Assembly: GCA_039588075.1 (NCBI GenBank)
Contig: JBDHAL010000048.1
Location: 1-34,792 of the forward strand
DNA: 34,792 nt
Reading direction: 5' to 3'
From: Gemmatimonadota bacterium
Lineage (GTDB): Bacteria; Gemmatimonadota; Gemmatimonadetes; Palauibacterales; KS3-K002
Positions within the stretch are counted from its first letter, which is position 1, and each line of letters begins with the position of its first letter. Under the pieces are notes generated by a model. The model was not told the DNA's origin. It worked only from the letters and a program-made list of their open reading frames with translations, and searched no databases. Below, piece by piece: positions 4,673-34,792 of the stretch. The position numbers and the translations under genes are program-made.

Positions 4673-5123
4673 AGCTATCGCCGTACTCGCCCTGCTGGGC
4701 GTTCTCGACTCGGCCTACCTGCTGCTGGCCAAGCTCGGATACATCGGCGGCCTCGCCTGCGGGATCTCGCACGGCTGCGACACCGTCAATGCTTCCGTCT
4801 ACTCGCAGTTCCTGGGGCTGCCGGTGGCAGGTATCGGACTGCTCGGCTACCTGGTGCTGCTCGCCCTCGCGATAGTCGGCACGCAGCCGCACTACGTCGA
4901 GGATCGGCGAATCGACAAGTTGATCGCTACGCTCTCAGGTTTTGCGGTCGCCTTCACGCTATATCTGACGTACGCCGAGCTGTTCATCCTGCGGGCCGTT
5001 TGCCAGTGGTGCGTCATATCACAGATAGCGATACTGGCCATATTCGGCCTGGCGGTGTGGGGGCTTTTGCAGGCGGGGAGAAAGGATTCGACATCGGTCA
5101 GCGGTCAGTCGGGGCTCGACTAG
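4659..5123 (+). CDS. Vitamin K epoxide reductase (VKOR) family membrane protein, a DsbB-like partner for DsbA
   Basis: Loop cysteine pair CGISHGC followed by S.Y..FLGLPVAGIGLLGY. TYA motif and CQWC (CxxC) sit in a transmembrane helix. The start overlaps the DsbA stop. The last ~12 codons are encoded by palindromic repeat copy A. Confidence 0.8.
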   Translation: MNRRRAIAVLALLGVLDSAYLLLAKLGYIGGLACGISHGCDTVNASVYSQFLGLPVAGIGLLGYLVLLALAIVGTQPHYVEDRRIDKLIATLSGFAVAFTLYLTYAELFILRAVCQWCVISQIAILAIFGLAVWGLLQAGRKDSTSVSGQSGLD

Positions 5124-5264
5124 CGGCGAAAGAGGCAACTATCAACCTCCCACCGCGGCTGCGCGACATCGGACGGTTGTAGGACGTAGGACGTGGGGCG
5201 TTGGACGTCGAGCGACGCCTCTTTCGCCCGCCGTCGAGCCCCGGCTGACCGCTGTCCGATGTCC
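5089..5264. repeat. Palindromic MITE-like element, copy A, about 176 bp
   Basis: ...gacatcggtcagcggtcagtcggggctcgactagcggcgaaagaggc...gcctctttcgcccgccgtcgagccccggctgaccgctgtccgatgtcc. The left and right arms are reverse complements (stem about 45 bp). It is nearly identical to copy B at 8121-8289. Confidence 0.85.
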
Positions 5265-5292
5265 AAAAAAAAAGAGCGGGCAAGCCCGCTCT
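5265..5292 (-). terminator. Rho-independent terminator for the minus-strand sigma factor gene; the hairpin may also act bidirectionally
   Basis: aaaaaaaaagagcgggcaagcccgctctctt: on the minus strand this reads as a GC hairpin (gagcgggc...gcccgctc) followed by a T9 run, immediately downstream of the stop at 5302. Confidence 0.7.
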
Positions 5293-5301
5293 CTTCTATC
5301 A

Positions 5302-6168
5302 TCAGGAAGGCGCCCAAAATCCTTCAAGCGCCTGCCCGTCAGGCGATTGGCGTAGCTTCTCGAAGGCACGATTGCGAATCTGCCGGATCCGCTCCCGCGT
5401 CACCCCCAACAACGACCCGATCTCCTCCAGCGTCATCTCTTCGCCGTCGTCCAGCCCGTAGTAGAGGACGAGGATCTTGCGCTCGCGCTCCGTCAGGTAC
5501 TTTCGGAACATCTCCTGGAGAAAGTGCCGCCGCGCCTGGAACTCGACCTCGTCCTGGATGTCGTCGGTCTCCATGCCGGAGAACCGCTCGCCGAACGAGG
5601 CGCTGTCCCGGTCGGTCCGATCCAGCGGCGCGTCGAGGCTCAGCTCGGCCGAGGCCACGCGACGCAGCGCCCGGATCGTCTGCACCGGCTCGCCCATGCG
5701 GTCTGCGATCTCGCGATCCGTCGGCGTCCGGCCCAGCTGCTGCGTCAGCGCCGTCTCCGTACGCGACAGCTTCACCAGGTTCGAGTTCTGGTTCAGCGGG
5801 ATCCGTACCGACCGCGTCTGTTCCGCCAGCGCCTGCAGCACCGTCTGCCGGATCCACCAGACCGCGTAGGAGATGAACTTCACTCCCTTATCGGGATCGA
5901 ATTTCTTGACCGCCTTGAGCAGGCCCTCGTTTCCGATGCAGACCAGCTCGGCCAGGTTCAGGCCTCGACCCTGATACTTCTTAACGTACGAGATCACGAA
6001 TCGAAGGTTCGCCGTCACCAGCCGCTCGGCTGACTTGCGGTCGCCGGCACGTGCCTTACGGGCGATCTCTCGCTCCGTCGCGGCGTTTTCGATTAGGGGG
6101 TACTTCTCGACGTCGTGAAGGTACTGGTCGAAGGAGTCTAAGGCCTTTGAGCTGAAGAACATGCCCAC
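5302..6168 (-). CDS. RNA polymerase sigma-70 family factor (group 2/3, RpoS/RpoH-like size, 288 aa)
   Basis: Region 1.2 YLHDVEKYPLI. Region 2 ERLVTANLRFVISYVKKYQGRGLNLAELVCIGNEGLLKAVKKFDPDKGVKFISYAVWWIRQ. Region 4 MTLEEIGSLLGVTRERIRQIRNRAFEKLR. Confidence 0.9.
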   Translation of the reverse strand: MGMFFSSKALDSFDQYLHDVEKYPLIENAATEREIARKARAGDRKSAERLVTANLRFVISYVKKYQGRGLNLAELVCIGNEGLLKAVKKFDPDKGVKFISYAVWWIRQTVLQALAEQTRSVRIPLNQNSNLVKLSRTETALTQQLGRTPTDREIADRMGEPVQTIRALRRVASAELSLDAPLDRTDRDSASFGERFSGMETDDIQDEVEFQARRHFLQEMFRKYLTERERKILVLYYGLDDGEEMTLEEIGSLLGVTRERIRQIRNRAFEKLRQSPDGQALEGFWAPS

Positions 6169-6490
6169 TTCCGCTCTGACTCAGGGTTAAGTATCTAACG
6201 ACTAAAAAAGCGAGATCCGATGTACGGTCCCGCCCGAGATGTACCGATACGTCCGGGCGCCTCCCTCCGCGCCGACCAGCCCGCCCCTAGCGATACCAGT
6301 GGCGGAAACGGACACCCTCAAGACGTAGCTTTGCAAGACCGTCAAGTATAAAACGCTACCCCCGATTCGTAAAGCCCGAAGAAAGTGCGAATCGCATGGC
6401 CATGCGGACAACCGGCTCGGTTCTCGGCTCCTGTTTTGACAACATACTATTCGGTACCCCGGCCAGTTCACCGGATCCCGCCCGCTCCGA

Positions 6491-7456
6491 TCAGTCGGAG
6501 TCCCGCAAGGCTGCCAGAATGGCGGGCCCCGAAGGAGAGTCGGGCCCCAGGCAGAGGGCGTAGGGCGCCGCCGCTTCGACCTCGACGGTCTCCACGATGG
6601 CCCCGTGGTCGGCGTCGCCGGAGGCGCGTCCGAGCGGGATGAGCCGTGTACGGAAGCCGCGTTTGTGGGCGAAGAGGGGCATGCGCTCGGAAGCGACGAC
6701 GAGGCGGCCTCGGAGGTAGGGCCAGCCGGGACCGAGGCGGGCCAGGGTGACGCGGGCGGAACGCGCGGCGCCGATGGAATCGCCCAGCTCCCGTTCGATG
6801 AGGCGGCGCGTTGCGCCGCGGAGGGCGTCGGGCGACTCCCAGCGGTGGAAGCGGCCCGCCCGGGTCAGGGCGGCATAGATGGCCGAAAGGAGCAGGAAAG
6901 CTGCGCCCCAGAGTCTCGGAGTCCAGGGCAACGGGGCCAGGACGAGGACGGCGGCGATGGAGGCGGCGAAGGGCGGGGCCGTCCATGCGAGGCCTGCGAG
7001 GCCGGCCGCCGTGAGGATCTGGATGGCGGTGAGACCGTGGAGCGCCGGGACCGGTCCTGCGGTTCGCCGGGCCGTGCGGACCGCCATGACCGAGACGTGG
7101 ACCAGCGCTGCCAAGCCGAGCGCCGCCAGCGCTCCGAACCACTGGATGTCCCTGGGCCCGGCGGCCAGGACGGCCGAAGCCAGAAGCGCCGCGGCCAGCG
7201 GGCGCGCCAGGGTGTGCAGTGCCGTCCAGACCAGGTCGCCGATTCGATAGCGACCGCAGGCCAGGTCGACCAGGGCCAGGGCGATGAGGGTGCTCCAGAC
7301 CAGCGGGACGGCCAGGCCCGAGATCGGTACGGGTAGCTCGATGAGCCCCAGGTAGGCCAGGATCCCCGGCACGGCCAGCGCGGCGTACAAACTGAGGCCG
7401 ATAGCGACGGCCATCGCGGCAAGGGTCAGGGCCGTTTCCAGCAAGTCGGGGCTCAC
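6491..7456 (-). CDS. Polytopic membrane protein of unknown function; probable GTG start at 7456 with a GGAGA RBS
   Basis: About 8 Ala/Leu-rich hydrophobic segments (LTLAAMAVAIGLSLYAALAVPGILAYLGL...). Only 2 Cys, so not DsbB/VKOR-like. The long Arg-rich N-extension back to 7546 is probably not translated. Confidence 0.55.
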   Translation of the reverse strand: MSPDLLETALTLAAMAVAIGLSLYAALAVPGILAYLGLIELPVPISGLAVPLVWSTLIALALVDLACGRYRIGDLVWTALHTLARPLAAALLASAVLAAGPRDIQWFGALAALGLAALVHVSVMAVRTARRTAGPVPALHGLTAIQILTAAGLAGLAWTAPPFAASIAAVLVLAPLPWTPRLWGAAFLLLSAIYAALTRAGRFHRWESPDALRGATRRLIERELGDSIGAARSARVTLARLGPGWPYLRGRLVVASERMPLFAHKRGFRTRLIPLGRASGDADHGAIVETVEVEAAAPYALCLGPDSPSGPAILAALRDSD

Positions 7457-7466
7457 TTTGTCTCCG

Positions 7467-8066
7467 TTAGCCGCCGCCGGCCTCGAGCGCCGCCAGTATC
7501 TGCCTCCGAAGCTCCTCGTAGGAGGCGGCCCCGGTGATCGATTCACCGCCCAGCACCACCGTCGGCGTCCCCGTCGCCCCGAAACCCAGCGCCTCGCGCA
7601 GGTCGGTCTCGATCACCCGGTGCGTCTCCTGCGAGCCCATGCAGTCGGCGAACCGCTCAGGATCCATGCCCAGGTTCGCCGCATAATCGTACCACAGAGC
7701 CTCCGGCACTTCCGTGCCGGCCCATTCCGGCTGCCTAACGTAGATGTAGTCGTGAAACGACCAGAACCGGCCCGCCTGGCCCGCGCAGTGTGCGGCCTTC
7801 GCCGCCGCTACCGCGTTCTTGTGCAGCCCGGCGAGCGGAAAGTACACGTAGCGTATCCTCAGCAGCCCCGGATCCACGAACTCCGCGATGACCGCCGGCA
7901 GCGCCACCAGCGCCAGGTTGCGGCAGTAGGGACACTCGAAATCAGAGTAGATTGACATCTCGACGGGAGCGTCGGGCGAGCCGAGGATGCGGTAATCCGG
8001 ATCCTGTGCCGTTACTTCTGAACTTAGAAGTAATGCTGCTGTGAGCGTTAAGAGCTTTATGTGCAT
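7467..8066 (-). CDS. DsbA-like thioredoxin-fold oxidoreductase, paralogue 2, with a signal peptide; alternative start at 8081
   Basis: MHIKLLTLTAALLLSSEVTAQ signal peptide. SDFECPYCRNLALVALP carries a CPYC motif. The C-terminal half aligns with DsbA-like copy 1 (FWSFHDY..EW.GTEVPE..YA..LG.D...GTPTVVLGG). The track ORF's N-terminal extension runs through repeat B and is rejected. Confidence 0.75.
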   Translation of the reverse strand: MHIKLLTLTAALLLSSEVTAQDPDYRILGSPDAPVEMSIYSDFECPYCRNLALVALPAVIAEFVDPGLLRIRYVYFPLAGLHKNAVAAAKAAHCAGQAGRFWSFHDYIYVRQPEWAGTEVPEALWYDYAANLGMDPERFADCMGSQETHRVIETDLREALGFGATGTPTVVLGGESITGAASYEELRRQILAALEAGGG

Positions 8067-8120
8067 GCGGTGGTGTAGCATTCTGGCGGTTTTTGTGCAA
8101 GTGCTTGATTTGGGGGATTT

Positions 8121-8289
8121 GGACATCGGACAGCGGTCAGCCGGGGCTCGACTAGCGGCGGAGGAGGAAGCTATCAACTGCCGACTGCGGACGCGTGACA
8201 TCGGACGATCGTACGATGTAGGTCGTTGGGCGTCGAGCGACGCCTCCTTCGCCCGCCGTCGAGCCCCGGCTGACCGCTGTCCGATGTCC
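8121..8289. repeat. Palindromic MITE-like element, copy B, about 169 bp
   Basis: ggacatcggacagcggtcagccggggctcgactagcggcg...cgccgtcgagccccggctgaccgctgtccgatgtcc. Same orientation and subfamily as copy A. Confidence 0.85.
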
Positions 8290-8295
8290 AAATTC

Positions 8296-8829
8296 TCACT
8301 TCCTCGACCGGCCCCGCATCCCCCGCACCCGCTCCAGGTCATAATCCCTCACGACCGCCGGCGGCCACCCACCCGCTTCAACCTTCATGATTAACTGCGA
8401 AAGCGTTTCCCGCGCTCGAGCCGCCGCCACTTCATCAATCCATCCATTGTCCACCGCCTCATCAAACTCGTCCTGATCCAGCACGCGATGGTTCCCCTCC
8501 AGGTCGACCCAGAGATCCAGGTAGAGGTCGTACATCGTCCAGGTACTGCGATCGAGATCCGGGGGCGCTATGAGGTTTACGTAGTACCCGGTATGCGTCC
8601 CGTCGCTCAGGTGGAAGCGGCCCACATCGTACCATTCGCCGGGGAAGACGAACCATACGATCGGGGAGCCGGGCTCGTAGATCAGCCGATCGGCGATGTA
8701 GAGCTCGGAAGTCAGTGGAGTGTTCTCGTGCAGGGTGACCTTGCAATCGTCTTGGTCGACGACGAGGTCCTGAACGAAGATGTCCATCCGGTTGGGCGGT
8801 CGGTGGTAGTGGATTTCGATTTCGGGCAT
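8296..8829 (-). CDS. DUF402-family protein (FomD-like nucleotide-phosphatase fold)
   Basis: YDLYLDLWVDLEGNHRVLDQDEFDEAVDNGWI matches the conserved Y.DL.LD......D.DE core of DUF402. The assignment is made from motif memory only. Confidence 0.6.
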   Translation of the reverse strand: MPEIEIHYHRPPNRMDIFVQDLVVDQDDCKVTLHENTPLTSELYIADRLIYEPGSPIVWFVFPGEWYDVGRFHLSDGTHTGYYVNLIAPPDLDRSTWTMYDLYLDLWVDLEGNHRVLDQDEFDEAVDNGWIDEVAAARARETLSQLIMKVEAGGWPPAVVRDYDLERVRGMRGRSRK

Positions 8830-8850
8830 GAGGCGCGAGCGGCGCTCGGG

Positions 8851-10977
8851 TCAGGAGGGGTAGAACGACGAGCGCTCGGTCAGCCCCGTCGCGGGCTCGA
8901 GTCGCGCCGATACGCTGCTGGCGTAGTGGCGCAGGCGATCGGCCACGTGGTCCAGGCCGAGGTGGTCGGCGTAGCGCAGCAGGCCGCCGCGGAAGGGCGG
9001 GAAGCCGGTGCCCATGATCATGGCGACGTCGAGGTTCTCCGGTGAGCTGACGACCCGATCATCCAGCGTGCGCGCCGCCTCGTTGATCATGGCCAGGACC
9101 ATGCGCTCCTCCGCTTCGCCTGATCCGGGCGGCTCTCCTTCGGACGCCTCGCGAAGCACGGCCTCGATCTCGCTGTCCGTGCCTTCCGCTTTGCCATCGC
9201 TGTAGCGGTAGAAACCGCGGCCGCCTTTGCGGCCGCTGACGCCGGTGGCCAGGACGGTCCCGACGATGGGAGCCGGCTGAAAGCGCTCGCCGAACCCCGA
9301 AATCATTGTCTTGCTCACCTCGGCGACGACGTCGAGTCCGATCTCGTCCAGCAGCCGCGCCGGCCCTACCGGCATGCCGAAGCGGGTCATGACGCGGTCC
9401 AGCTCCTTGACGGTCATCCCTTCCTGCAGCAGGTACCCCGCTTCGGTGAGATAGGCGGCGAGCACGCGGTTGACCACGAAGCCGGGCGAGTCTTTGACGA
9501 TGATGGGCGTCTTGCCCAGGCGAACGGCGATCTCGAACGCGGTGGCTAGGGCGTCGTCCGACGTGGCCGCGCCGCGCACCACCTCGACCAGGGGCATGCG
9601 GAAGGGGGGGTTGAAGAAGTGAAGCCCGCAGAGGCGATCGGGCCTCTCCAGCTCCTCCTGCAGCTTGGAGATAGACAGCGCCGATGTGTTGGTGGCGATC
9701 ACCGCGTCGGGGCGCAGGAAATCCTCCAGCGCGCTGATCACCATCTTCTTCACGTCGAGCCGCTCTACCACCGCCTCCACCACGGCGTCCACGGTGTCGA
9801 ATCCGTCGTAGCTCACCGCCCCGCGAAGACAATCGACACGAGCCTGCAGGTCTTCCGAAGACCAGCCGGACCGCTCGCCCGCTTTCTCCAACAGCTCGCG
9901 CGCACGCTCGATCCCGGCCTCGACCCGCTCGGGGTCCACGTCGACGATCTTGACGGGCACGTTCTGGTAGGCGAACAGCTCGGCGATCCCGGCCCCCATC
10001 ACGCCGGCCCCGACGACCGCGGCGCGCCGCACCGTCGCCGCCTCACCGTCGGGCACTCGCTTGCGGGCGCCCTCGGTAAGCTGGAAGACGGCGATCAGGT
10101 TCTTGGACTCGGTCGTGACCGCCAGCCGCCCGAAGGCTTCCGCCTCCTGCTCGTACGCCTTTTCCGGCGCGACGGAGAGGCTGCTGACGACGACCTCGAC
10201 GGCGGCCGGTAGCGCCGGGTAGTGACCCCTGGTGCGGGCGAGCACGGCCCGGCGCGTCAACTTCTTGATGATCCAGCGGGCGGCCGGACCGTCCTCGAGC
10301 AGTCGCGCCACGGTGGAGCGAAGATGTCGCCGCAACGGCGTCTTCCCGCGGGCGAAACCGGCGGCGAGAGCGGCAACCTCGTCGTCGAAAGCCTCGGCGG
10401 ACAGGATGCGGTCGACAAGCCCGAGCTCGCGGGCGCGGTCGGAGTTGATCTGCCTTCCAGAGAGGATCAGGTCGAGTGCGGCCCGGAGCCCGATCAGGCG
10501 CGGCGTTCTCACGGTGCCACCCAATCCCGGGACGAAGCCCAGTCGGGTCTCGGGGAAGCCGAAACGCGTCTGTGCGTGATCGCTGGCGACCCGGTAGTCG
10601 CAGGCGAGCGCCAGCTCTAGGCCGCCGCCCACACACACACCGTTGATCGCCACCAGCGTCGGCACCGACAGCCGCTCGAGCCGCTTGAAGATGGCCTGCC
10701 CGCGGCGCGAGATCTCGCTCGCCGCCGCCGCCGACTCCAACCCGGCCAGCTGATCGATGTCGGCGCCCGCGATGAAGTTGCCGGGCTTGGCGCTTTGCAC
10801 CAGCAACGCCCGGACTTCTCCACGGCCGGCCGCCACCTCGACCGACGCCAGGTGCGACTCCAGACGGACCATGACCGGATGGGTCAGCAGGTTCACCTTC
10901 GAGTCGGGGCGATCGAAGGTGATCGTCGCTAGACCGTCCGCGATTTCGAATCGGAGGTCCGGAACCTGCTCGGTCAT
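8851..10977 (-). CDS. fadJ: Fatty-acid oxidation multifunctional protein: enoyl-CoA hydratase plus 3-hydroxyacyl-CoA dehydrogenase (FadJ/FadB type)
   Basis: Crotonase region ...NFIAGADIDQL...GGGLELALACD. NAD-binding motif VVGAGVMGAGIA. C-terminal 3HCDH region. The start is set at MTEQVPDLRF (ATG 10977, GGGAG RBS); the track's 60-aa upstream extension is rejected. Confidence 0.9.
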   Translation of the reverse strand: MTEQVPDLRFEIADGLATITFDRPDSKVNLLTHPVMVRLESHLASVEVAAGRGEVRALLVQSAKPGNFIAGADIDQLAGLESAAAASEISRRGQAIFKRLERLSVPTLVAINGVCVGGGLELALACDYRVASDHAQTRFGFPETRLGFVPGLGGTVRTPRLIGLRAALDLILSGRQINSDRARELGLVDRILSAEAFDDEVAALAAGFARGKTPLRRHLRSTVARLLEDGPAARWIIKKLTRRAVLARTRGHYPALPAAVEVVVSSLSVAPEKAYEQEAEAFGRLAVTTESKNLIAVFQLTEGARKRVPDGEAATVRRAAVVGAGVMGAGIAELFAYQNVPVKIVDVDPERVEAGIERARELLEKAGERSGWSSEDLQARVDCLRGAVSYDGFDTVDAVVEAVVERLDVKKMVISALEDFLRPDAVIATNTSALSISKLQEELERPDRLCGLHFFNPPFRMPLVEVVRGAATSDDALATAFEIAVRLGKTPIIVKDSPGFVVNRVLAAYLTEAGYLLQEGMTVKELDRVMTRFGMPVGPARLLDEIGLDVVAEVSKTMISGFGERFQPAPIVGTVLATGVSGRKGGRGFYRYSDGKAEGTDSEIEAVLREASEGEPPGSGEAEERMVLAMINEAARTLDDRVVSSPENLDVAMIMGTGFPPFRGGLLRYADHLGLDHVADRLRHYASSVSARLEPATGLTERSSFYPS

Positions 10978-11033
10978 GGCTGACTCCCTGGGAACGCGCG
11001 GCGCCCTCTGCGCGGCGCCGCGCCCCTGCACAA

Positions 11034-11780
11034 CTAGAACGTACTCCGAACCTCTGCGTTCGAGTCGTTCAACACCAATGTGTCCACGCCGCCGCCCGAC
11101 GCGTAGAGGATGTTCCAGTATAGCTCCTCGAACGGCAACGGGTAGCGCGTGTAGATCCACCAGTCACCACGCGGCACCGCGAAGTACGCCCAGCCGCCCG
11201 CGTCCGTCGTGTCCACCAGCTCCTCGCCCTGTGCTTCCGCCAGGCTGTCCACTATCTCGACGTACCTCTCGAACGCCACGTCCTCCCACGACGCCAATAC
11301 CGCGTTGAACGAGTCCGCTCGCGCCGCGTACGTGCTCTGCAGCGCCGTGAACTCGTCGAAGTACCGCGTCTTTTCCCCGTCCAGCTGCCTCACTGCGTCC
11401 TCAAGGTTCTCGAACCGCCGAAACAGTCGAAAGTACTCGTCGCTCGCCGTGTTCATCCCTTGCATCCGCTCGCTCAGATCCCGCTGCTCCGAGTACGCTT
11501 CGTTCCACGCCGCCTCCGCCGTACGCCACTGCTCCTGAGCCGCCGCCACCGAATCCCGCATCGCGATCAGATCCGCCGGCGGCTCCGGCTCCGCCTCCGA
11601 CGCCGTCGCCGCCATCGCCGCGAACAGCGAGTCTCGGTCATACCGCAGCATCTTCACCACCAGCTGCGCTCGGCCCCCATCCTCTCCGTCCGCCGCCGCC
11701 CGTAACGACAGCTGGGTCGATCTGCTGCACGCACTCACCGTCACCAACGCGCCAAGACACAGGACCCAATGCTTGTTCAT
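11034..11780 (-). CDS. Hypothetical lipoprotein
   Basis: Signal peptide with lipobox MNKHWVLCLGALVTVSAC|S. The protein is acidic and helical, and I recognise no family. Confidence 0.55.
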   Translation of the reverse strand: MNKHWVLCLGALVTVSACSRSTQLSLRAAADGEDGGRAQLVVKMLRYDRDSLFAAMAATASEAEPEPPADLIAMRDSVAAAQEQWRTAEAAWNEAYSEQRDLSERMQGMNTASDEYFRLFRRFENLEDAVRQLDGEKTRYFDEFTALQSTYAARADSFNAVLASWEDVAFERYVEIVDSLAEAQGEELVDTTDAGGWAYFAVPRGDWWIYTRYPLPFEELYWNILYASGGGVDTLVLNDSNAEVRSTF

Positions 11781-11958
11781 TGAGCTCTCCCAGATTAAAG
11801 TACCTGTCCGCCGAATCCAGAAAACCTAGGATCGACGCCCTTAGTTTTCAAGCGCCGCGATACCGTCGCCGCGAGCCGCCGCCTCCGTGCAGCCGCTCGC
11901 AACCGGCCCGGCCGGCGCCGCAGACAGTGGTGTGATAGACTACAGAATACCAAACCCG

Positions 11959-12528
11959 ATGTCCCACGCCTGGTCCGGGTCACGAGCGCTGGCGGCGATT
12001 GCGGCGGCGTCGCTGTTGGGCGGCTGCGGCTATGGGAGGATCCAGGAGCTGGACGAGGCGGTGCTGGAGGCGCGCTCGGAGATCGAGGTGCAGCTGCAGC
12101 GTCGATCGGCGCTGGTGCCGAACCTGCTGGAGACGGTGCAGAGCTACGGAGCGGTGGCCGAGGAGGTGATCGCGGGGGTGGCGGATGCCCGGGCGGGGCT
12201 TGTGGGGGCGGTGCGGTCGGGGCAGCTGCCGGGGATGGAGACGGCGAGCGCGGAGCTGTCGGGGGCGTTGGAGGAACTGCTGACGGTGGTGAGCCGGACT
12301 CCGGCCCTGGACGACGACCGCGGTTTCCGGTTGCTGCGGTCGCAGTTGGAGCAGACGGAAGAGATGATCATTCAGGCGGGCCGCAGCTACAACGAGGCGG
12401 TGCGCCGTTACAACGACTTCATAGAGCAGTTTCCTCAGATGGTAACGGCCAAGGTGATTGGGGCGGAAGCGCTCGAGTTGTTCGAGCCCTGGGATGGGCC
12501 GGCTTCACTGTCCTCGGCCGACGAGTAG
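11959..12528 (+). CDS. lemA: LemA-family protein, membrane- or lipid-anchored
   Basis: Start at MSHAWSGSRALAAIAAASLLGGCG. The LemA core SYNEAVRRYNDFIEQFPQMVTAKVIG matches the conserved RYN...FP...A motif. Confidence 0.8.
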   Translation: MSHAWSGSRALAAIAAASLLGGCGYGRIQELDEAVLEARSEIEVQLQRRSALVPNLLETVQSYGAVAEEVIAGVADARAGLVGAVRSGQLPGMETASAELSGALEELLTVVSRTPALDDDRGFRLLRSQLEQTEEMIIQAGRSYNEAVRRYNDFIEQFPQMVTAKVIGAEALELFEPWDGPASLSSADE

Positions 12529-12533
12529 GGCGT

Positions 12534-12776
12534 TCAGAGCAGGATTCTCTTCACCAATTCCAGCCCGATCAACACGATCAGCGGCGAGAGATCGATGCCC
12601 GCCGAGACCGGAAAAGCCTTCCGCACGGGCTCCAGCACCGGGTCGGTCAGCTTGTTCAGAAGGTCGATCGCCTGGTTCGACGTGGTGGGTGAAGTGAACC
12701 AGGAGAAGATCGCTCGCAGGATTATTAGGCCCTCGTAGAGGGTGATGAGTGCGACCAGCAAACCGGCGATTCCCAA
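12534..12776 (-). CDS. yggT: YggT (Ycf19) family membrane protein of about 80 aa; TTG start at 12776 after a GAGGA RBS
   Basis: LGIAGLLVALITLYEGLIILRAIFSWF...LTDPVLEPVRKAFPVSAGIDLSPLIVLIGLELV is the canonical YggT pattern (iflsW...P.l.P.R...P..gg.DlSPl). The track's Thr/Val-rich N-extension is encoded by the GACAAC repeat and is rejected. Confidence 0.7.
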   Translation of the reverse strand: MGIAGLLVALITLYEGLIILRAIFSWFTSPTTSNQAIDLLNKLTDPVLEPVRKAFPVSAGIDLSPLIVLIGLELVKRILL

Positions 12777-12860
12777 GGTTTTATCCTCGCTTGCGTCGGG
12801 GGTGGTTGGTTTTGGTCGGTGGACACTACGTCCGCGGGTTGCCGTGTGTTTCACTGTATC

Positions 12861-12980
12861 GACGACGACAACGACAACGACAACGATAAGACAACGACAG
12901 CGAGAAACGAGAAATCTCGCCGCCGGCCATGCCTTTTTCTCGTTTCTCGCTGTCGTTGTCGTTGTCGTTACCGTTGTCGT
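12861..12980. repeat. Long perfect hairpin built from GAC/AAC trinucleotide repeats, located in the divergent yggT / hemQ-Rieske intergenic region
   Basis: Left arm: gacgacgacaacgacaacgacaacgataagacaacgacagcgagaaacgagaaa. Loop: tctcgccgccggccatgcc. Right arm: tttctcgtttctcgctgtcgttgtcgttgtcgttaccgttgtcgtc. The inner 25 bp are perfectly complementary. GC content here is well below the genome average. Confidence 0.75.
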
Positions 12981-13092
12981 CAGTAGCACCAGAGAACCGC
13001 AACAAGCCGAAATCGGTTCTAACTAGATGGGAGAAAGCGCCGGTTGCCAGCAGCGGGCCGCCCTTGGGCAAGAACTAAGAGAAGGAGCAGCA

Positions 13093-14136
13093 ATGTCGGG
13101 CAAGGAAGAGAAGCGTCAGCTCGTCCGCTACCTGTTCTTCAAGCTGGACCCGGCGTGGCGCCGGCTGAATCTGGACAAGCAGATCGACCAGAAGATCGAA
13201 CTGGGCGACACGATCCGGGGCTTTCAGGCGAAGTCGCTTCTGCGGTCGTACAGCCTGATGGGTACGCGTGGCGAGGTCGATTTCATGCTGTGGCAGGCGA
13301 CGGAGGATCTGGAGACGCTGCAGGCGCTGGAGACGTCGATCTTCTCCACGCGGCTCGGGGCCTATTTTTCGACCCCGTACAGCTACCTGGCGATGACCAA
13401 GCGGTCGATCTACGACTTTCCCGATGACCCGGAGCATGACGACCGAATCGCCGTTCGGCCGCAGGATTCCCGGTACCTGTTTCTGTACCCGTTTACCAAG
13501 ACCCGCCCCTGGTACAAGCTATCGCACGAGCAGCGCCAGGAGATGATGAGCGAGCACGTGCGCGTCGGCCGCAAGTATCCCGACATCCGGATCAATACCG
13601 CCTACTCCTTCGGCCTCGACGACCAGGAGTTCATGGTCGGCTTCGAGGGCGACGACCCGGGCGCCTTCCTCGACCTGGTGATGGAGCTGCGCGAGAGCGA
13701 CGCTTCGGCCTACACGCTCGAGGACACGCCCATTTTCACCTGCATCCAGATGTCGCTCTGGGACGTCCTCGACTCGCTGGGCGGCGCCTCCGTGTCCGAG
13801 CAGGCGCGCGCCGCCGAGCGCGACGCCGACGGCTTCGTGCTCGCCGCGTCCGTGGCCGAGCTGCCGCCCGGCGCCTCGAAGCGCGTCTATAACGGCGCCG
13901 ACGCCATCGCCCTGTTCAACGTGGATGGGACGTTTTACGCCGTCAGCGACCGCTGCACCCACGGCCGCGCTTCTCTGAGCGAGGGCAGCGTGGACGCGAA
14001 GGAGTGCGTGCTCAACTGTCCGTGGCATGGAGGCAAGTTCGATATCAAGAACGGCGAACCGGCCGGCGGGCCGGTGCGGGCGGCGATCAAGACGTATCGC
14101 GTGAAGGTCGAGGGGGAGAATGTGTTGGTTGGTTGA
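13093..14136 (+). CDS. hemQ: Coproheme decarboxylase (HemQ/ChdC, chlorite-dismutase family) fused to a C-terminal Rieske [2Fe-2S] domain
   Basis: AAGGAG RBS before ATG 13093. HemQ hallmarks: VRYLFFKLDPAW, VDFMLWQATE, YLFLYPFTKTRPWYKLSHEQRQEMMSEHVRVGRKY, YSFGLDDQEFMVGFEGDDP, DLVMELRESDASAYTLEDTPIFTC. After residue ~250, Rieske box I CTHGRASL and box II CPWHGGKF (CxH...CxxH, 17-aa spacing). Confidence 0.85.
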   Translation: MSGKEEKRQLVRYLFFKLDPAWRRLNLDKQIDQKIELGDTIRGFQAKSLLRSYSLMGTRGEVDFMLWQATEDLETLQALETSIFSTRLGAYFSTPYSYLAMTKRSIYDFPDDPEHDDRIAVRPQDSRYLFLYPFTKTRPWYKLSHEQRQEMMSEHVRVGRKYPDIRINTAYSFGLDDQEFMVGFEGDDPGAFLDLVMELRESDASAYTLEDTPIFTCIQMSLWDVLDSLGGASVSEQARAAERDADGFVLAASVAELPPGASKRVYNGADAIALFNVDGTFYAVSDRCTHGRASLSEGSVDAKECVLNCPWHGGKFDIKNGEPAGGPVRAAIKTYRVKVEGENVLVG

Positions 14137-14140
14137 TTAG

Positions 14141-14230
14141 GTGAACATCGAACATTGAGAATACGCCCCGATGTTGAACGTCGGACCTCGAGGCCGGGAC
14201 GTTGAACGTCGAGGCGTGCTTCGATGTTCA
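14141..14230. repeat. Palindromic element with GAACATCGAA arms, related to the 521-752 decamer block
   Basis: gtgaacatcgaacattgag...cgatgttgaacgtcg...gacgttgaacgtcgagg...cttcgatgttcac. The outer 12-bp arms are perfect reverse complements. Confidence 0.6.
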
Positions 14231-14262
14231 CAAAAAAAGAGCGGGCAATGCCCGCTCTTTTC
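14231..14262 (-). terminator. Bidirectional intrinsic terminator, strong on the minus strand, for the M23 peptidase gene; also closes the hemQ-Rieske gene
   Basis: caaaaaaagagcgggcaatgcccgctcttttcc: a GC hairpin (agagcgggc/gcccgctct) flanked by A7 on one side and T4 on the other. The hairpin is nearly identical to the one at 5265-5292. Confidence 0.7.
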
Positions 14263-14286
14263 CTCATCGGCTGGTGTTATATATGG

Positions 14287-15264
14287 CTAATCAACAATGA
14301 CCTTAGATAACCGGTAATTATCCGGGTTCACGGCTCGCCCATTCTGCAGCACCTCGTAATGTACGTGCGGTCCCTTGGCCAGGCCGCTGCTGCCCACGAG
14401 GGCCACGGTATCGCCACGACGCACGCTGTCGCCCACCTTCACTTTGAGGTTCTTCTCGTTGTGCGCGTAGCGGGTCTTGAGCCCGTTGCCGTGGTCGACC
14501 TCCACCGTCCAGCCGAAGCCCGGGCGCCAGCCAGCATACGTCACCTGGCCGTCGGCGGTCGCCACGACCGGCGTGCCGCGGGGGGCCGAGATATCGATGC
14601 CTTCGTGGGGACGGCGAATGTTCAGGAGTGGGTGCCAGCGGCTGCGGCTGAAGGAAGAGCTGAGCCACCCGTTGGTCGGGTCGATCGACGGGTAGGTCAC
14701 CAGCTCATCGCGCCGGGTCTCCATCGCCCGAGATGCCTCGACCAGGCTCGCCTGCAACAGGTTCGACTGCCGAAGCAGGCGGTTCAGGTCGCCGGTCGCG
14801 GCGAATACCTCGCCGCCCAGCGCCGGATCCAGCTCCAGCAGTGGCTCGCTCTCGATCGAGCCGGTTCCCGGTCCGCCGATTCCCACCTGGCGAACTTCCG
14901 GATCGAGCTCGGGCAGCCCGGCTAATAGACGAAAACGACGATCCCTCTCAGAGATCGTCGTCATCGACTGCGTCAATTGGTCCACCGTCTCCTGCATTCG
15001 CGCCACATCGGCCACCAACAGCGAGTTCTCTTGCTGGAGCTCTGACGCCTTCGCCAGGTCTCCTAGCTTGAGGATCAGCGCGCCGCTGGCCACGAAGATG
15101 AATAGGAGAACGGCTGCGACCGCCCCGGCGGCGTAGCGTAGCGTACGTTGCGAAATGTGCAGCGTATGCGCAGGCCGCGAAGGGTCTGTGATTACTAGGA
15201 ACGTCAGGCGGTTTCGTTCCATCCGCGCTCGTTCAGAGTTTTCCTGGTTCAAAAGCGCGCCCAC
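14287..15264 (-). CDS. M23-family (LytM-domain) metallopeptidase with an N-terminal transmembrane anchor and coiled coil (EnvC/NlpD-like); start at 15264 or 15222
   Basis: HEGIDISAPRGTPVVATADGQV...GWTVEVDHGNGLKTRYAHNEKNL...GDTVALVGSSGLAKGPHVHYEV contains the HxxxD and HxH catalytic motifs. N-terminal transmembrane segment AAGAVAAVLLFIFVASGALIL. Confidence 0.85.
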   Translation of the reverse strand: MGALLNQENSERARMERNRLTFLVITDPSRPAHTLHISQRTLRYAAGAVAAVLLFIFVASGALILKLGDLAKASELQQENSLLVADVARMQETVDQLTQSMTTISERDRRFRLLAGLPELDPEVRQVGIGGPGTGSIESEPLLELDPALGGEVFAATGDLNRLLRQSNLLQASLVEASRAMETRRDELVTYPSIDPTNGWLSSSFSRSRWHPLLNIRRPHEGIDISAPRGTPVVATADGQVTYAGWRPGFGWTVEVDHGNGLKTRYAHNEKNLKVKVGDSVRRGDTVALVGSSGLAKGPHVHYEVLQNGRAVNPDNYRLSKVIVD

Positions 15265-15778
15265 CGGTCTCGTCCAGTGACAGTTAAATCCAGGCAGTTC
15301 AACCCGCCTGGTTTTTCAACGGCTTACCGATGGAGGAGGGGCAGGCGCCACGTTAACGCCAAGGGGCAGGACTGTCAAGCCACCGCACCAGCAGATAGAG
15401 TTTGCAAGGTCTGTTCCCACCTTACCTACAGCCCATAAGCTCATATACTACAACGACTTCGGGTTTTCTCTCCCCCTGCCAATCACCCCAAAAATCGGTA
15501 ATAATTACCCATCTTTTAGGCATTTTTGACCGCCTCTGGCCCTTCCACGCCGCGTTACTGCCGGTGATCGGTAACCGGTAATCGGTGATCGGTAACCCCT
15601 TTTCCCCCACCGGTTACACGGGATCTCCACTACCTGTACGGGTGACCGAATAGGCCAGCACGATCGGGGGTACTCTTAAGTAGTAGAAGGCTGATCGCTG
15701 AAGTTGCGCCAAGCCTCGGACACCGGCAGAATAGACCCGTCCCACCCAATCGCGCGGTCCGCCACCAGGAGAAGGCTC

Positions 15779-16456
15779 ATGCTGGGGATCTACATTTTGG
15801 CCGCCATGCTGGGCGGCGGAATGCTCGTCATCTCGGTACTGAGCGGAGTGCATCACGACGCGGACATCGACGTCCACGGAATCGATGCAGATGTCTCGGG
15901 CATGGATGTGGATGTGGGCGGCGTCGACGTGGACGTGGATGTATCGGGCGTCGATGTGGATGCCGGCGGTCTGGACGCCGATCATGACGTCCATGGCGGC
16001 TACGAAGGGGCGGGCCAGCTGGTGCTGGGATTGTTCAGGCCGCGCAACATCATCTTCTCCCTTACCGCTTTCGGTCTCACCGGCGCGCTGCTCACGCTGA
16101 CGGGGAACCCCGAGAGCGCGACGCTAGGCCTCGCGATCGGGATGGGCGCCGGCGCATGGTTGCTCACCTACGGTCTCTTCACCTGGCTGAAGCGCAGCGA
16201 AAGCGTGATGGACACGGTGGGGGAACGGGAGATCGAGGGCCGGCCGGGCCGGGTCGTCCTGGCGCTGGAGCCGGGGAAGTCCGGGCGGATATCGTGCCTG
16301 ATCGGAGACCGCGAGCAGTATCTGACGGCGCGCCTGGCGCCGGAGGTGTCGAGGCAACTGGCGTCGGGCAGCGAGGTCGTCATCCTGCGGGTCGAGGACG
16401 GGGTGGCGGAAGTCATTCCGTTCGATGTACTGGAGTTACCACCAGCAGAAAGTTGA
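15779..16456 (+). CDS. NfeD-like membrane protein (partner of SPFH/flotillin proteins) carrying a D/H-rich repeat insertion
   Basis: AGGAGA RBS before ATG 15779. Transmembrane helices plus a C-terminal beta-barrel-like region (GRPGRVVLALEPGKSGRISCLIGDREQYLTARL...EVVILRVEDGVAEVIPF). Insert: HHDADIDVHGIDADVSGMDVDVGGVDVDVDVSGVDVDAGGLDADHDVHGG. Lies immediately upstream of and overlapping the flotillin gene. Confidence 0.7.
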   Translation: MLGIYILAAMLGGGMLVISVLSGVHHDADIDVHGIDADVSGMDVDVGGVDVDVDVSGVDVDAGGLDADHDVHGGYEGAGQLVLGLFRPRNIIFSLTAFGLTGALLTLTGNPESATLGLAIGMGAGAWLLTYGLFTWLKRSESVMDTVGEREIEGRPGRVVLALEPGKSGRISCLIGDREQYLTARLAPEVSRQLASGSEVVILRVEDGVAEVIPFDVLELPPAES

Positions 16457-16466
16457 GGATAGAATC

Positions 16467-17738
16467 GTGGATGCGGACACTGGACTAGTACTTGGAATGG
16501 TGGGGCTGGGCGTGCTGATGGGGCTTATCTATACGGTCAAGTCGCTCATCGTCATCTGCCAGCCCAACGAGATGGTAGTGATCACGGGCCGCAAGCGGCT
16601 CACCGCCGACGGGCGCCGGGCGGGCTACCGGCTGCTGCACGGCGGCCGTACGCTGCGGGTGCCCATCGTCGAGCGTGTCGCGAGACTCGATCTGACGACC
16701 CTCCCCATCGAGGTCGTGGTCAAGAACGCGTATTCAAAGGGCGGCATCCCGCTCCAGGTGCACGGCATCGCCAACGTGAAGGTCAGCGCCCGTGACCCCG
16801 TGGCCCACAACGCCGTCGAGCGCATGCTCGACAAGCCGTTCGACGAGATCATGCAGATCGCCAAGGACACGCTCGAGGGTAACCTGCGTGGCGTGCTGGC
16901 GACGATGACGCCGGAGGAAGTGAACGAGGACCGGCTGAAGTTCGCCCACACTTTGATCGAAGAGGCGGACGAGGACATGAAGAAGCTGGGCCTCGAGCTC
17001 GATACGATGAAGATCCAGAACGTCATCGACGAGGTGAACTACCTGGATTCCATCGGGCGCCAGCGGACCGCCGAGATCCTCAAGAAGGCGCGGGTCGCCG
17101 AGGCCGAGCGCAGCTCGGAGGCGCAGCAGACCGAGGCCGCGGCGCGCCAGGCGGCGGAGATCGCCAAGATCGAGGCCGACAAGGCGATCGTCGAGAAGAA
17201 CAACGAGCTGCGCGTGCGAACGGCGGAGCTCGAGGCCGAAGCCCTCGCCAGGGAGCTTGAGGCGCCGGTCGCCGGTGAGAAGGCAAAGGCCATCGCCGAG
17301 CAGACTCTGCAGCAGGAGCGCATCACCCTGGAGCAGAAGCGCCTCGAGGCCGACGTCCTGTTGCCGGCCCGCGCCGAGCGCGAAGCGGCCGAACAGCTGG
17401 CCAAGGGCACGGCGGCGACGATCGTCGAGGACGGTCGCGCACGGCTGTTCGTCCTCGAAGAGACGATCAAGCTGTATCTGAACGCGGGCAGCGACGCGGA
17501 ACGGATCTTCATCCTGAACATGCTGCCCGACATCATCCACGACCTGACGAAGACGGTGGAAGGAATCGACATCGACAAGCTAACGGTGATCGACTCGGGC
17601 GACGCCGGCAGCGGCGTGGCGAATACGGCAACCCAGTTGCCGGCGGCGGTCATCAAGTTGACCGAGCAGATCGAGTCGGCGACCGGCGTGAATATCCTGA
17701 GTCGGCTTGGGTCGGGGAATGTTGAAGAGGAGAAGTAG
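16467..17738 (+). CDS. floT: Flotillin-like SPFH/Band-7 domain protein (FloT/YuaG-like) with an EA-rich coiled coil
   Basis: N-terminal transmembrane segment LVLGMVGLGVLMGLIYTV. SPFH core MVVITGRKR...LRVPIVERVARLDLTTLPIEVVVKNAYSKGGIPLQVHGIANVKV. Long Ala/Glu coiled coil (AEAERSSEAQQTEAAARQAAEIAKIEADKA...). GTG 16467 follows a GAGGAT motif; ATG 16425, which overlaps the NfeD gene, is an alternative start. Confidence 0.85.
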   Translation: MDADTGLVLGMVGLGVLMGLIYTVKSLIVICQPNEMVVITGRKRLTADGRRAGYRLLHGGRTLRVPIVERVARLDLTTLPIEVVVKNAYSKGGIPLQVHGIANVKVSARDPVAHNAVERMLDKPFDEIMQIAKDTLEGNLRGVLATMTPEEVNEDRLKFAHTLIEEADEDMKKLGLELDTMKIQNVIDEVNYLDSIGRQRTAEILKKARVAEAERSSEAQQTEAAARQAAEIAKIEADKAIVEKNNELRVRTAELEAEALARELEAPVAGEKAKAIAEQTLQQERITLEQKRLEADVLLPARAEREAAEQLAKGTAATIVEDGRARLFVLEETIKLYLNAGSDAERIFILNMLPDIIHDLTKTVEGIDIDKLTVIDSGDAGSGVANTATQLPAAVIKLTEQIESATGVNILSRLGSGNVEEEK

Positions 17739-17750
17739 GAAGGACTAGTT

Positions 17751-17919
17751 GGACATCGGTCAGCGGTCAGCCGTCGCTCGACGCCCAACGAAAGAGGCGG
17801 CTGTCAACGCCCGACTTCCGATTGTCCGACGTCCGATTTCCCCGGACGTTGGGTGTCGGGAGTCGATAGTCGCCTCTTTCGTTAAGCATCGAGCGACGGC
17901 TGACCGCTGACCGATGTCC
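17751..17919. repeat. Palindromic MITE-like element, copy C, about 169 bp
   Basis: ggacatcggtcagcggtcagccgtcgctcgacgcccaacgaaagaggcggctgtcaacgcccgac...gtcgatagtcgcctctttcgttaagcatcgagcgacggctgaccgctgaccgatgtcc. The 20-bp terminal inverted repeats are perfect. Confidence 0.85.
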
Positions 17920-17922
17920 TAT

Positions 17923-18789
17923 TCAAGATTTTTCAACCGTTCCATCGCGTGCCACACTCCCGCCGCCCGGAAAATCCAGCCGCGTCAGCGAATCCACCAA
18001 AACCGCTCCCCGGCCCGACGGATCATGATTCACCAGGCCCGGAGGCACCTGGAAAGTGGACCGAAGCACCGCCTCCGAGACTCGCCCCACTTCATCAATC
18101 GAAGCGCAGGCAACCGCTCCTATATCTAGCGGCGACCTCATGTTGAATGGTCCGTAAGTGAGCAGGTTGCCCAGTGAGTAGAAGCTGAGCGCGTCGCCGC
18201 GCCATTGCAGCGCCCGCAAGACGTGTGGTCCGTGGCCGATGACCAGGGCGGCGCCCGACTGCATGGCGGCCCGGGCGAAGGCCACCGAGTTTCCACGGTC
18301 TTCTCCCAGGAACATCTCGGTGCGATCCGGCGTCCGCTGGGCGCCGCGTCCTTCCGCACCCATGTGCATGGTGACGACGACGCGCCGGTAGCTCGCGAAG
18401 GCACGCGCCACGTGCCGGCGCACGGCGGCAAGGTCCCGCGGATCCGCTCCCGCCCGGAACGTGCTGAATCCCAAGAACGCGATCGTGTCGCCCCTCGAGG
18501 TGACGGCCAGCGTTGCCAGCGTGTCCGCGCCTGTCACGCTGATGCCCGCCTGCCTGAGGTTTTGGATCGTGGAATAAAAGCCGTCCAGCCCGGCGTCCAT
18601 GGCGTGGTTGTTCGCCACGTTGCCGACGACCGCCGCATCACCGGCGAAGCGACCCAGCGCCGCCGCCGTCCATCCGGGCTGGCGGAACGCGTAGCAGCTC
18701 GTCGAGCCCGGCCGGCATTTGTTGAAGTTTAGCGGCCCGTCTCCGATGGCGCCCTCCACGTTCAGCAGCACCACGTCGGCGTCGGCCAC
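17923..18789 (-). CDS. CapA/PGA_cap-family (metallophosphatase-like, poly-gamma-glutamate-capsule-type) protein; the N-terminal GD...ML metal motif is apparently missing or frameshifted
   Basis: ADVVLLNVEGAI, GNVANNHAMDAG, AFLGFSTF, VVVTMHMGAEG, LVIGHGPHVLRALQWRGDALSFYSLGNLL are all CapA signatures. The ORF starts at a GTG three codons after a TAG. A lipoprotein signal and Pro-rich linker (RLIIPPLCVLLVAC|PRPVPPGPPPEEPGPAP...) lie upstream in a different frame. Confidence 0.65.
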   Translation of the reverse strand: MADADVVLLNVEGAIGDGPLNFNKCRPGSTSCYAFRQPGWTAAALGRFAGDAAVVGNVANNHAMDAGLDGFYSTIQNLRQAGISVTGADTLATLAVTSRGDTIAFLGFSTFRAGADPRDLAAVRRHVARAFASYRRVVVTMHMGAEGRGAQRTPDRTEMFLGEDRGNSVAFARAAMQSGAALVIGHGPHVLRALQWRGDALSFYSLGNLLTYGPFNMRSPLDIGAVACASIDEVGRVSEAVLRSTFQVPPGLVNHDPSGRGAVLVDSLTRLDFPGGGSVARDGTVEKS

Positions 18790-19056
18790 CAGCGGGCTCA
18801 GCGGCGCCTACAACGAATCCGGGTCGGGGAAAGGCGGAACACGAAAGCCGAGCCGCGCCGTGGCTCGCCCCCGCCGGCGCAGATGCGCACGCTACGGGAA
18901 ACATCCGCCGGCTCGGTCTCCGCAGGCGCCTCCGGCTCCGGCTCGACGGGCACGGCGGGCTGGACCGGCGCGGGACCTGGTTCTTCGGGCGGCGGACCTG
19001 GAGGCACCGGGCGCGGGCAGGCAACCAGAAGAACGCACAAGGGGGGAATGATGAGC

Positions 19057-19226
19057 CGGACAGCCGACAGCCGACAGCCGTTGATCGACGCATCAACGAA
19101 AGAGGCGACTATCGACGCCCGACTACCGAGCCCCAACGCCCGTCGGACGTAGGAAGTCGGAAGTCGGAAGTCGATAGTCGCCTCTTTCGTTAAGAGTCGG
19201 TTGTCGGCTGTCGGCTGTCGGCTGTC
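19057..19226. repeat. Palindromic MITE-like element, copy D, about 170 bp, with (GACAGCC)3 terminal repeats
   Basis: ggacagccgacagccgacagccgttgatcgacgcatcaacgaaagaggcgactatcgacgcccgac...gtcgatagtcgcctctttcgttaagagtcggttgtcggctgtcggctgtcggctgtcc. Its core is shared with copy C. Confidence 0.85.
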
Positions 19227-19253
19227 CGTCTAAAAACTTCCCAGGTTAGAAGT

Positions 19254-29848: not shown

Positions 29849-29922
<74 letters not shown>

Positions 29923-33925: not shown

Positions 33926-33970
33926 CGCCTGATAAGCGTGAGGTCGGTGGTTCGAGTCCACCCAGGCCCA
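33926..33970 (+). repeat. Perfect 45-nt direct repeat of the tRNA-Ile 3' half (attR-like)
   Basis: cgcctgataagcgtgaggtcggtggttcgagtccacccaggccca is identical to 29878-29922. Confidence 0.85.
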
Positions 33971-34792
33971 TAGCACATAAGATGAAGCCCTGTTTCCGGT
34001 TACGGAGCAGGGCTTCTCTACACATATGTTTTCAAATCGTCGCGATCGTGGTAACGGACAGCGAGGTTTGTTAGAAACATCTGTTTCAGCCGGCGGATCG
34101 AGTATTCCATTGAGTAGCCAGGGCATGACCGAGATGGCGTTCGCACATCGAGGCTGGTTGCCGGCGAGCAAAGCACACCGACGTTAACGGCTTCCAGGCC
34201 CCCACTCGTTTGCGAAACCTGTTGAGGTAACTAGGGGAGAAAGACATCCTACGAGGCCGGAGGCGTTAGAGCATCACACCGGCGCCGCCCCGATACTATG
34301 TGCTTGAAGCTTTATGTATGACATGTGTGAGCTTATGTTCGAGCGGCGGGCACCACCACTGACACCACACCTACCAAAAAGCCAGGTCTTTCTGGAAGCA
34401 CTCGGGGCGCCAGAGGGCTGAGCTGTTCTAGCCCCGCGGACAGAGGCGCAGGTGCAAGTATCAGTCTCCCGGAGGCAACCTAGAAGCGCGTATGAAGCAC
34501 AATTCCGTTATTGACGATTTCTTACGGGACATCGAGCCGAGTCCGCAGACGCAGGATTCCGTTGCCCGGCCATCGCGGTCGGTGCCGAACTGCAAAACGC
34601 AGGTCGCATCCCCGACAGTGTGGTGGACCGCCGTCCGACACCATCCCGGCGCGTTCCAGTTTCAGCCGCGAGCGGTTCACTTGTGCCGGTGGGCGATGCG
34701 CCCGCAGCGGTTCACTCTTTTCATGGTGCTCTCTCCGTGGTGTGAAAATGAAGGGGGTCCCTGAGGCTTTGTAACTCGCGGTAATAGTAGAG

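Follow-up and report, generated by a model that had tools for sequence, protein, structure and literature searches.

Gemmatimonadota are abundant in soil and barely cultured. The stretch of DNA analysed here (34,792 nucleotides, contig JBDHAL010000048.1 of the Gemmatimonadota bacterium assembly GCA_039588075.1; hereafter the window) carries chromosomal housekeeping genes (metG, accA, dnaE, the primary sigma factor gene and a fadB-like gene), and its MetRS is 78–84% identical to proteins from metagenome-assembled genomes named Gemmatimonadota. Dispersed between these genes lie four copies, A to D, of a palindromic intergenic repeat that is distinguished by arms built of 7-nucleotide (nt) units. 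All four copies share one orientation and, with their internal landmarks, are located as follows.

5089-5264: copy A (176 bp; terminus type 1), flanked by the end of the VKOR coding sequence and the sigma factor terminator; 173.9 bits with our model R1
5127-5146: conserved non-repetitive core CGAAAGAGGCNNCTRTCRAC, as it appears in copy A, pairing with GTCGANNGNCGCCTCYTTCG
5179-5208: GTAGGAC heptamer array (4.3 units) within copy A
8121-8289: copy B, 169 bp, terminus type 1, 3-6 nt past the DUF402 stop and upstream of DsbA-like 2
17751-17919: copy C, 169 bp, terminus type 1 with a C/D-type core, occupying the space between the stops of the convergent genes Band_7 and capA
19058-19227: copy D, 170 bp, terminus type 2, (GACAGCC)3, with a C/D-type core, between the metG stop and the capA start
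5207-5226, 8232-8251, 17789-17808/17862-17881 and 19097-19116/19170-19189: core partner sites

The initial annotation had placed four related elements at these positions, and apart from a shift of one base for copy D both the positions and the homology are borne out. Pairwise identity is 65–88%, with 87.6% between A and B, 75.4% between C and D and 65–73% between the pairs, so that of the two pairs described as near-identical only A/B deserves the term. Similarity ends sharply at GGACA...TGTCC, beyond which the flanking DNA is unrelated, and each end consists of a conserved terminus of 23–32 nt (GGACAKCSGWCAGCSGWCAGCCG..TCGAC). The reported inverted termini are indeed shared: A, B and C carry a terminus of 20–23 nt on each arm, and D and two homologues from a related lineage (L258, see below) carry a variant of it. 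The 20-nt terminus GGACATCGGWCAGCGGTCAG occurs six times in the window with at most three mismatches, compared with 0.02 occurrences expected, and none of 100 shuffles reaches this count. Even the (GACAGCC)3 terminus of D, originally noted as an exception, is the terminus of A to C with 5 substitutions in 23 nt, mirrored on the other arm of D. A conserved core had also been claimed for all copies, and the pattern GTCGANNGNCGCCTCYTTCG has eight matches, seven of them within the elements, against 0.73 expected; the left core of copy B, however, has diverged (CGGAGGAGGAAG).

Whole-copy folding, with pairing between the arms better than chance, was likewise a sound prediction. Each copy forms a single hairpin of ~70 pairs (-121 to -142 kcal/mol, z -11 to -19), and 0 of 200 shuffles fold as well. 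Across the four copies, 96.6% of alignment cells are paired compared with 88.7% in shuffles, and changes on both sides are seen at 15 of 58 pairs, compared with 6.6 in shuffles and a count of 15 in none of 500; the signal collapses when the partner columns are slid. When the two L258 copies are added, in an alignment fitted to the model, double changes are found at 20 of 58 pairs and 93.8% of cells are paired. The copies thus resemble REPINs, discussed below, in being inverted doublets that form one hairpin with compensatory changes. In A and B the inner third lacks palindromy, and their arms differ by 15 transversion mismatches.

The hairpin has no sense strand. The minus strands of A to D fold as well as the plus strands, and an alignment of the arms that keeps strict register has similar numbers of G.T and A.C mismatches (13 versus 16), as expected for a palindrome without a preferred strand; an excess of G.U pairs on the plus strand of the RNAalifold structure, considered as evidence for an RNA strand, vanishes in that register. 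This bears on the earlier suggestion of a small RNA or strand-specific RNA element, which we do not retain. An independently transcribed small RNA gene in each copy would account for the stable structure, but the idea is highly improbable given that both strands fold equally, that A overlaps a coding end and that neither promoter-like nor terminator-like sites are enriched at the elements (6 terminator-like sites found, 9.1 expected). The elements belong to no Rfam family: only tRNA-Ile exceeds its gathering threshold in the window, and in E-value mode the elements attract only generic long-hairpin (plant) miRNA models at 31–45 bits, far under the gathering scores of 79–168. Orientation relative to flanking transcription is mixed as well, with B and D between co-oriented minus-strand genes and A after a plus-strand gene.

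The arms show a further property that the initial annotation did not mention, namely a 7-nt periodicity that runs through the whole element. Within A, C, D and an element of a sister family, E (see below), Tandem Repeats Finder identifies arrays of period 7, and self-identity at a lag of 7 nt is 0.49–0.61 across whole elements, compared with 0.27 for the window background. Length changes occur in 7-nt steps, and the difference in length between A and B is exactly one such unit, an extra unit of the GTAGGAC array in A. Tandem 7-nt units are the hallmark of STRR-like repeats; here the units are degenerate and the element has a unique core in addition. It is a fully palindromic repeat built of 7-base units and belongs to no named family.

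The distance between a stop codon and the start of a copy is 0–27 nt in all four cases (27 nt for D, measured from the metG stop), and the copies abut stop codons and terminator A/T tracts. The description of a dispersed intergenic family holds. Copy A overlaps the coding end of VKOR: as had been noticed, A replaces the native stop and supplies the last 11–12 codons (DSTSVSGQSGLD*). Spurious N-terminal extensions caused by the elements are also confirmed. The DsbA-like-2 open reading frame (ORF) at 7467–8342 is over-extended through copy B, its Pfam domain beginning at residue 117 and its relatives being 198–225 amino acids (aa) long, and capA is likewise falsely extended. A 5'-degenerate capA, in contrast, is not what we see: the damage is an in-frame stop at 18808–18810 on the minus strand (PDSL*APLS, with Leu in relatives), upstream of which capA/PGA_cap homology runs on in an unchanged frame, and the gene is either a pseudogene or the product of a sequencing error.

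For comparison, syntenic loci were fetched from nine related Gemmatimonadota lineages via MetRS and sigma factor homologues. Distances among the lineages are roughly equal, with 63–68% protein identity over 2.7 kaa, and the primary sigma factor is 97% identical in relatives. The order metG-capA-Band7...FadB-DUF402-DsbA2-DUF4126-sigma-VKOR-DsbA1...S58-GGDEF is kept in all nine, and only L120 is without DsbA2; there (CP070823.1, 20411–21500) DUF4126 follows directly after DUF402, whereas the gene is found in the window and in those lineages fetched via the sigma factor that cover the region, which represents a lineage-specific loss or gain of DsbA2.

This synteny refutes the proposal that each pair of copies brackets a gene cassette, which predicted that the enclosed segments would be missing from relatives. 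The segments are present, and their genes are residents whose order and location are unchanged across nine lineages, whether elements are there or not; no foreign or variable segment lies between the copies, as it would between the ends of a composite transposon. That the pairs are the ends of two composite mobile units, one carrying sigma/DUF4126/DsbA2 and the other capA, is suggested by geometry alone, A/B and C/D being mutually nearest and most similar, and with every element a complete palindrome by itself we find it barely credible.

What varies between lineages is the content of the gaps. The gaps orthologous to B, C and D measure 13–110 bp in relatives and lack the elements (metG-capA -10 to 82 bp, capA-Band7 14–104 bp, DUF402-DsbA2 40–109 bp). 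The sigma-VKOR gap, the site of A, contains only a terminator in L254 (96 bp) and L260 (65 bp) and holds other elements in L246 and L258. Presence and absence at orthologous sites can therefore be seen, although at ~65% protein identity exact empty sites are not alignable. Two full-length homologues with the (GACAGCC)3 terminus occur in L258/L259, which also have a fragment in the DUF402-DsbA2 gap.

L258 11520-11684: homologue in the S58-GGDEF gap; 82.5 bits, E 3.5e-16; 69% identical to D across 173 nt
L258 6916-7096: homologue in the sigma-VKOR gap, as for A; 67 bits, E 1e-12

In L246 the sigma-VKOR gap holds a GAACATC-type element whose termini match those of window element E, at a non-orthologous locus. 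Between equally distant lineages, orthologous gaps thus differ in the subfamily that they contain, or are empty, and three terminus types are found among these lineages; the conservation of termini across ~65% protein identity implies constraint. Other 7-nt-periodic hairpins or arrays of unrelated sequence occupy L243 12690–12775, L246 13878–13975 and 9318–9505, and L244 12613–12719. Sigma-VKOR foldback elements are unstable within populations: in the L246 population the element (L246 9281–9496) varies through internal deletions among strains whose sigma proteins are identical. A 58-bp deletion between TTCGATG repeats is seen in L247 (2000–2157), and both arms and the terminator are lost in L250 (2370–2423), with the right-hand junction at ATGTTCACTTC repeats. 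An assembly artefact is ruled out by the homologous, non-identical copies and by agreement between independent assemblies (L258 versus L259; L246–L253).

An identity of 87.6% between A and B in unrelated flanks requires copying between loci, and together with the unique 20-nt core at four loci, the termini conserved between lineages in which intergenic DNA is otherwise saturated with change, and the empty gaps in relatives, this is best fitted by a non-autonomous mobile foldback element. With moderate confidence we read A to D as such an element, lineage-restricted, with the behaviour of a small selfish DNA hairpin and similar to REPINs and to MITEs (miniature transposable elements with inverted repeats), which inserts beside stop codons and terminators and afterwards changes through slippage in 7-nt steps and correction between the arms. 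The missing target duplication, the whole-length hairpin, the compensatory changes and the shared orientation point to a mechanism that uses hairpins or single-stranded DNA, of the REPIN/RAYT or IS200/IS605 kind, which we infer to be a better model than a cut-and-paste MITE of the DDE type. The enzyme that copies the element between loci would be encoded at another location, recognise the repeated termini and act, most plausibly, on a hairpin or single-stranded intermediate, as do REPIN/RAYT or IS200/IS605-type transposases; such a mode would leave no target duplication. Insertions would survive only at the sites that a compact genome tolerates, that is, gene 3' ends and terminator flanks. Thereafter, heptamers may be gained or lost by slippage and one arm corrected against the other, either by template switching within the palindrome or by selection for the hairpin. 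Consequences for the host (a 3' untranslated region with a long hairpin, an altered VKOR C-terminus, spurious ORF extensions) would be by-products.

Several observations weigh against a mobile element. No target-site duplication is present, as no direct repeats flank the six copies (A to D and the two from L258) when their flanks are read directly; left-hand flanks are often rich in T and right-hand flanks in A, which merely extends the palindrome. No transposase, RAYT or integrase domain was detected in the 30 larger ORFs of the window that were scanned, and no further copies were found in sequence collections that lack the source contig and genome. The relatives compared are all distant (~65% protein identity). 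Different subfamilies in orthologous gaps could, instead of new insertions, be old elements that were homogenised genome by genome, and transposition based on termini does not need palindromy over the whole length.

No parent insertion sequence (IS) with the same termini was found in the larger ORFs of the window or in ~226 kb of related loci searched with model R1. Among the matches listed for the core 20-mer in genome contigs (at least 119), all are chance matches in GC-rich coding DNA and none is palindromic; the strict palindromic core pattern has 0 matches in metagenome contigs, a collection that does not hold the window itself. The degenerate terminus pattern matches at least 120 metagenome loci, those listed being generic (GACAGCN)n arrays without the core, and ~20 of the 120 listed (L122–L241) are foldback hairpins of 60–170 nt that score 25–47 bits with model R1, some with a terminator-like apex (L229 2553–2646, L163 4775–4916). 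A composite of six-frame translations has no match at E<=10 among 5.8 billion proteins, searches of plasmids, phages and viral contigs were negative or returned chance coding matches, and we found no paper on repeats in Gemmatimonadota. Retron msd, CRISPR and telomere-resolvase sites were considered and rejected, as no gene for a reverse transcriptase, Cas protein or resolvase lies nearby and the copies are scattered, one at a time, in chromosomal housekeeping DNA.

The main rival is growth in place, by which polymerase slippage beside a pre-existing small hairpin or terminator would produce heptamer arrays, intrastrand template switching would carry them to the opposite flank and so lengthen and perfect the palindrome, and ectopic gene conversion between similar arrays would homogenise the copies of a genome. 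It accommodates the lack of target duplication, transposase and strand bias, and it explains why different sequences of the same architecture occupy the same gaps, as with the unrelated 7-nt-periodic hairpins of L243, L244 and L246. Of the L246 element, strain L250 retains just the small hairpin at the apex, hairpins from metagenomes (L229, for example) consist of a terminator-like apex flanked by inverted heptamer arrays, and heptameric repeats are over-represented in bacterial intergenic DNA, also as inverted pairs (PMC4692102). Growth in place does not by itself explain, however, how a non-repetitive core of 20 nt and a terminus of 23 nt came to lie at four unrelated loci and in a ~65%-identical lineage. 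For the variants of L250 and L247, deletion between short direct repeats (ATGTTCACTTC and TTCGATG, respectively) is a better reading than an ancestral state, and gene conversion across 170 bp, between loci with nothing but short arrays in common, is itself hypothetical. We therefore regard growth in place as possible but unlikely.

Four further intergenic elements of like architecture, absent from the initial annotation, lie in the window together with a bidirectional terminator module that occurs twice.

535-742: element E, sister family with GAACATC heptamers, terminus type 3; termini 88% and 82% identical to those of the L246 element
12853-12981: element F, GACAAC-hexamer hairpin in a divergent promoter region
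14141-14231: element H, 91-bp hairpin of GAACATC units with type 3 termini (GTGAACATCGAACAT...CGATGTTCAC), z -9.1, between the stop of the gene for a chlorite dismutase (Cld)-Rieske fusion protein and a terminator
15549-15618: element G, CCGGTAA/TCGGTGA heptamer array
5265-5300 and 14232-14265: bidirectional terminator module A9-GAGCGGGCAAGCCCGCTC, abutting A, and its near-identical counterpart abutting H (near-identical stretches 5262-5303 and 14227-14269)

The module has the form A7-9 GAGCGGGCAA(T)GCCCGCTC T-rich CTCATC, and both occurrences stand directly beside a foldback element; the module may constitute a separate small family of repeats or belong to a composite unit. A and H are thus directly beside canonical terminators, which are separate from the elements. 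Such proximity, the stop codons 0–27 nt from all four copies, the pairing preserved by compensatory changes and the occupation of the same kinds of gaps in several lineages would all suit a 3'-end structure selected by the host, either an mRNA hairpin (an aid to termination, a block to 3' exonucleases or an RNase III site) or a DNA cruciform or protein-bound array. Nevertheless, no copy is followed by a U-tract or T-run on either strand, as an intrinsic terminator would be, and terminator-like sites are not enriched. The elements have no consistent sense, since B and D lie between minus-strand genes and A follows a plus-strand gene while all share one orientation, and they have no wobble bias. 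Four lineages lack elements in available gaps (sigma-VKOR in L254 and L260; metG-capA and capA-Band7 in L120 and L121), which indicates that they are dispensable, and in tiny intergenic gaps every insertion is necessarily near a stop codon. We consider a host-selected structure distinctly unlikely as the explanation of the family, although a host function of the kind proposed for REP/BIME sequences could be compatible with mobility.

Two other features of the window deserve mention. The gene at 13027–14136 encodes a chlorite-dismutase-like domain fused to a Rieske [2Fe-2S] domain (369 aa), a fusion kept in most relatives. Further downstream, the 3' end of tRNA-Ile(GAT) (29849–29922) is repeated exactly over 46 nt at 33926–33971, ~4 kb away, and the repeats bracket DNA of lower GC content (0.56–0.61) that encodes response regulators and a PAS histidine kinase. 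The duplication resembles the att duplication of an integrated island, and no integrase is encoded within the segment.

The foldback family has practical consequences. The elements corrupt gene calls, with a false tail on VKOR and false N-terminal extensions of DsbA2 and capA, and short-read assemblies will probably break at them. The sequences themselves, with the three types of terminus and model R1, now provide the means to seek the responsible enzyme in complete genomes.

Among known systems, REPINs come close to a mobile foldback element of this kind. They are inverted doublets of REPs (repetitive extragenic palindromes) that form hairpins and are mobilised by RAYT tyrosine transposases (Bertels & Rainey 2011, PMC3116915). 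Like REPINs, copies A to D are extragenic, each whole unit is one long hairpin with conserved ends and a less conserved spacer, compensatory changes are common, families are lineage-specific and no target duplication is expected. REP sequences, however, are defined as stem-loops of 20–40 bp tagged by GTAG or CGTC (PMC3733652). The termini GGACATCGGTCAGCGGTCAGCC and (GACAGCC)3 are untagged arrays of three 7-nt units that form no hairpin of their own, so by definition the elements are neither REP nor REPIN. The A–D family is also longer (165–185 bp, compared with about 70–110 bp) and 7-nt periodic throughout, and no RAYT gene was seen in the larger ORFs of the window.

Bacterial MITEs and palindromic repeats such as ERIC, Correia/NEMIS, RPE and YPAL are similar in being small, non-coding and intergenic with terminal inverted repeats, often at gene 3' ends, able to fuse to the ends of ORFs and present or absent between relatives (general knowledge; reviews in PMC3184786 and PMC10969869). 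In contrast to these, A to D have no target-site duplication or parent IS that we could find, their complementarity is actively maintained over the full length and their arms are internally repetitive. With no transposase, RAYT or target-site duplication found, a MITE in the strict sense is unproven. The MITE- or REP-like label first given to the family suits a real, dispersed palindromic repeat that is absent from gaps B, C and D in relatives.

IS200/IS605-derived palindrome-associated elements recognise hairpins and transpose as single-stranded DNA without target duplication, a mode that would fit the lacking duplication and the shared orientation of A to D. They have distinct imperfect subterminal hairpins and a left target of 4–5 nt, neither of which is evident here, and no TnpA or TnpB was found in the larger ORFs of the window. 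Eukaryotic Foldback (FB) transposons consist almost entirely of long inverted repeats built of short tandem subrepeats, are kilobase-sized and have target duplications; the resemblance is an architectural analogy only, with no evidence of common descent.

Heptameric intergenic repeats include the cyanobacterial STRR, the GGGAATC repeats of Xanthomonas and the TAACTGA repeats of Beggiatoaceae (PMC4692102, PMC4679880). They share with A to D the 7-nt unit, the intergenic location and a length that varies between relatives, and they are sometimes inverted pairs able to form stem-loops; type 2-like (GACAGCN)n arrays are very common in metagenomes (at least 120 loci). Unlike A to D, they are mostly simple direct arrays (an inverted partner was found in 11 of 120 sampled by a strict test), while our elements are discrete, with a conserved length, a unique core and defined ends. 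The three terminus subfamilies and the ~20 of 120 listed (GACAGCN)n loci that are foldback hairpins are hints of something broader. Tentatively, and with little confidence, we suggest that a widespread, undescribed class of bacterial foldback elements with degenerate-heptamer arms, of which A to D would be the earliest members to be defined, might be generated or mobilised by a heptamer-specific mechanism which, if real, would also explain the excess of 7-nt repeats in bacterial intergenic DNA. As it stands, the family joins two phenomena that are usually kept apart, palindromic intergenic mobile repeats and the over-representation of heptameric repeats.

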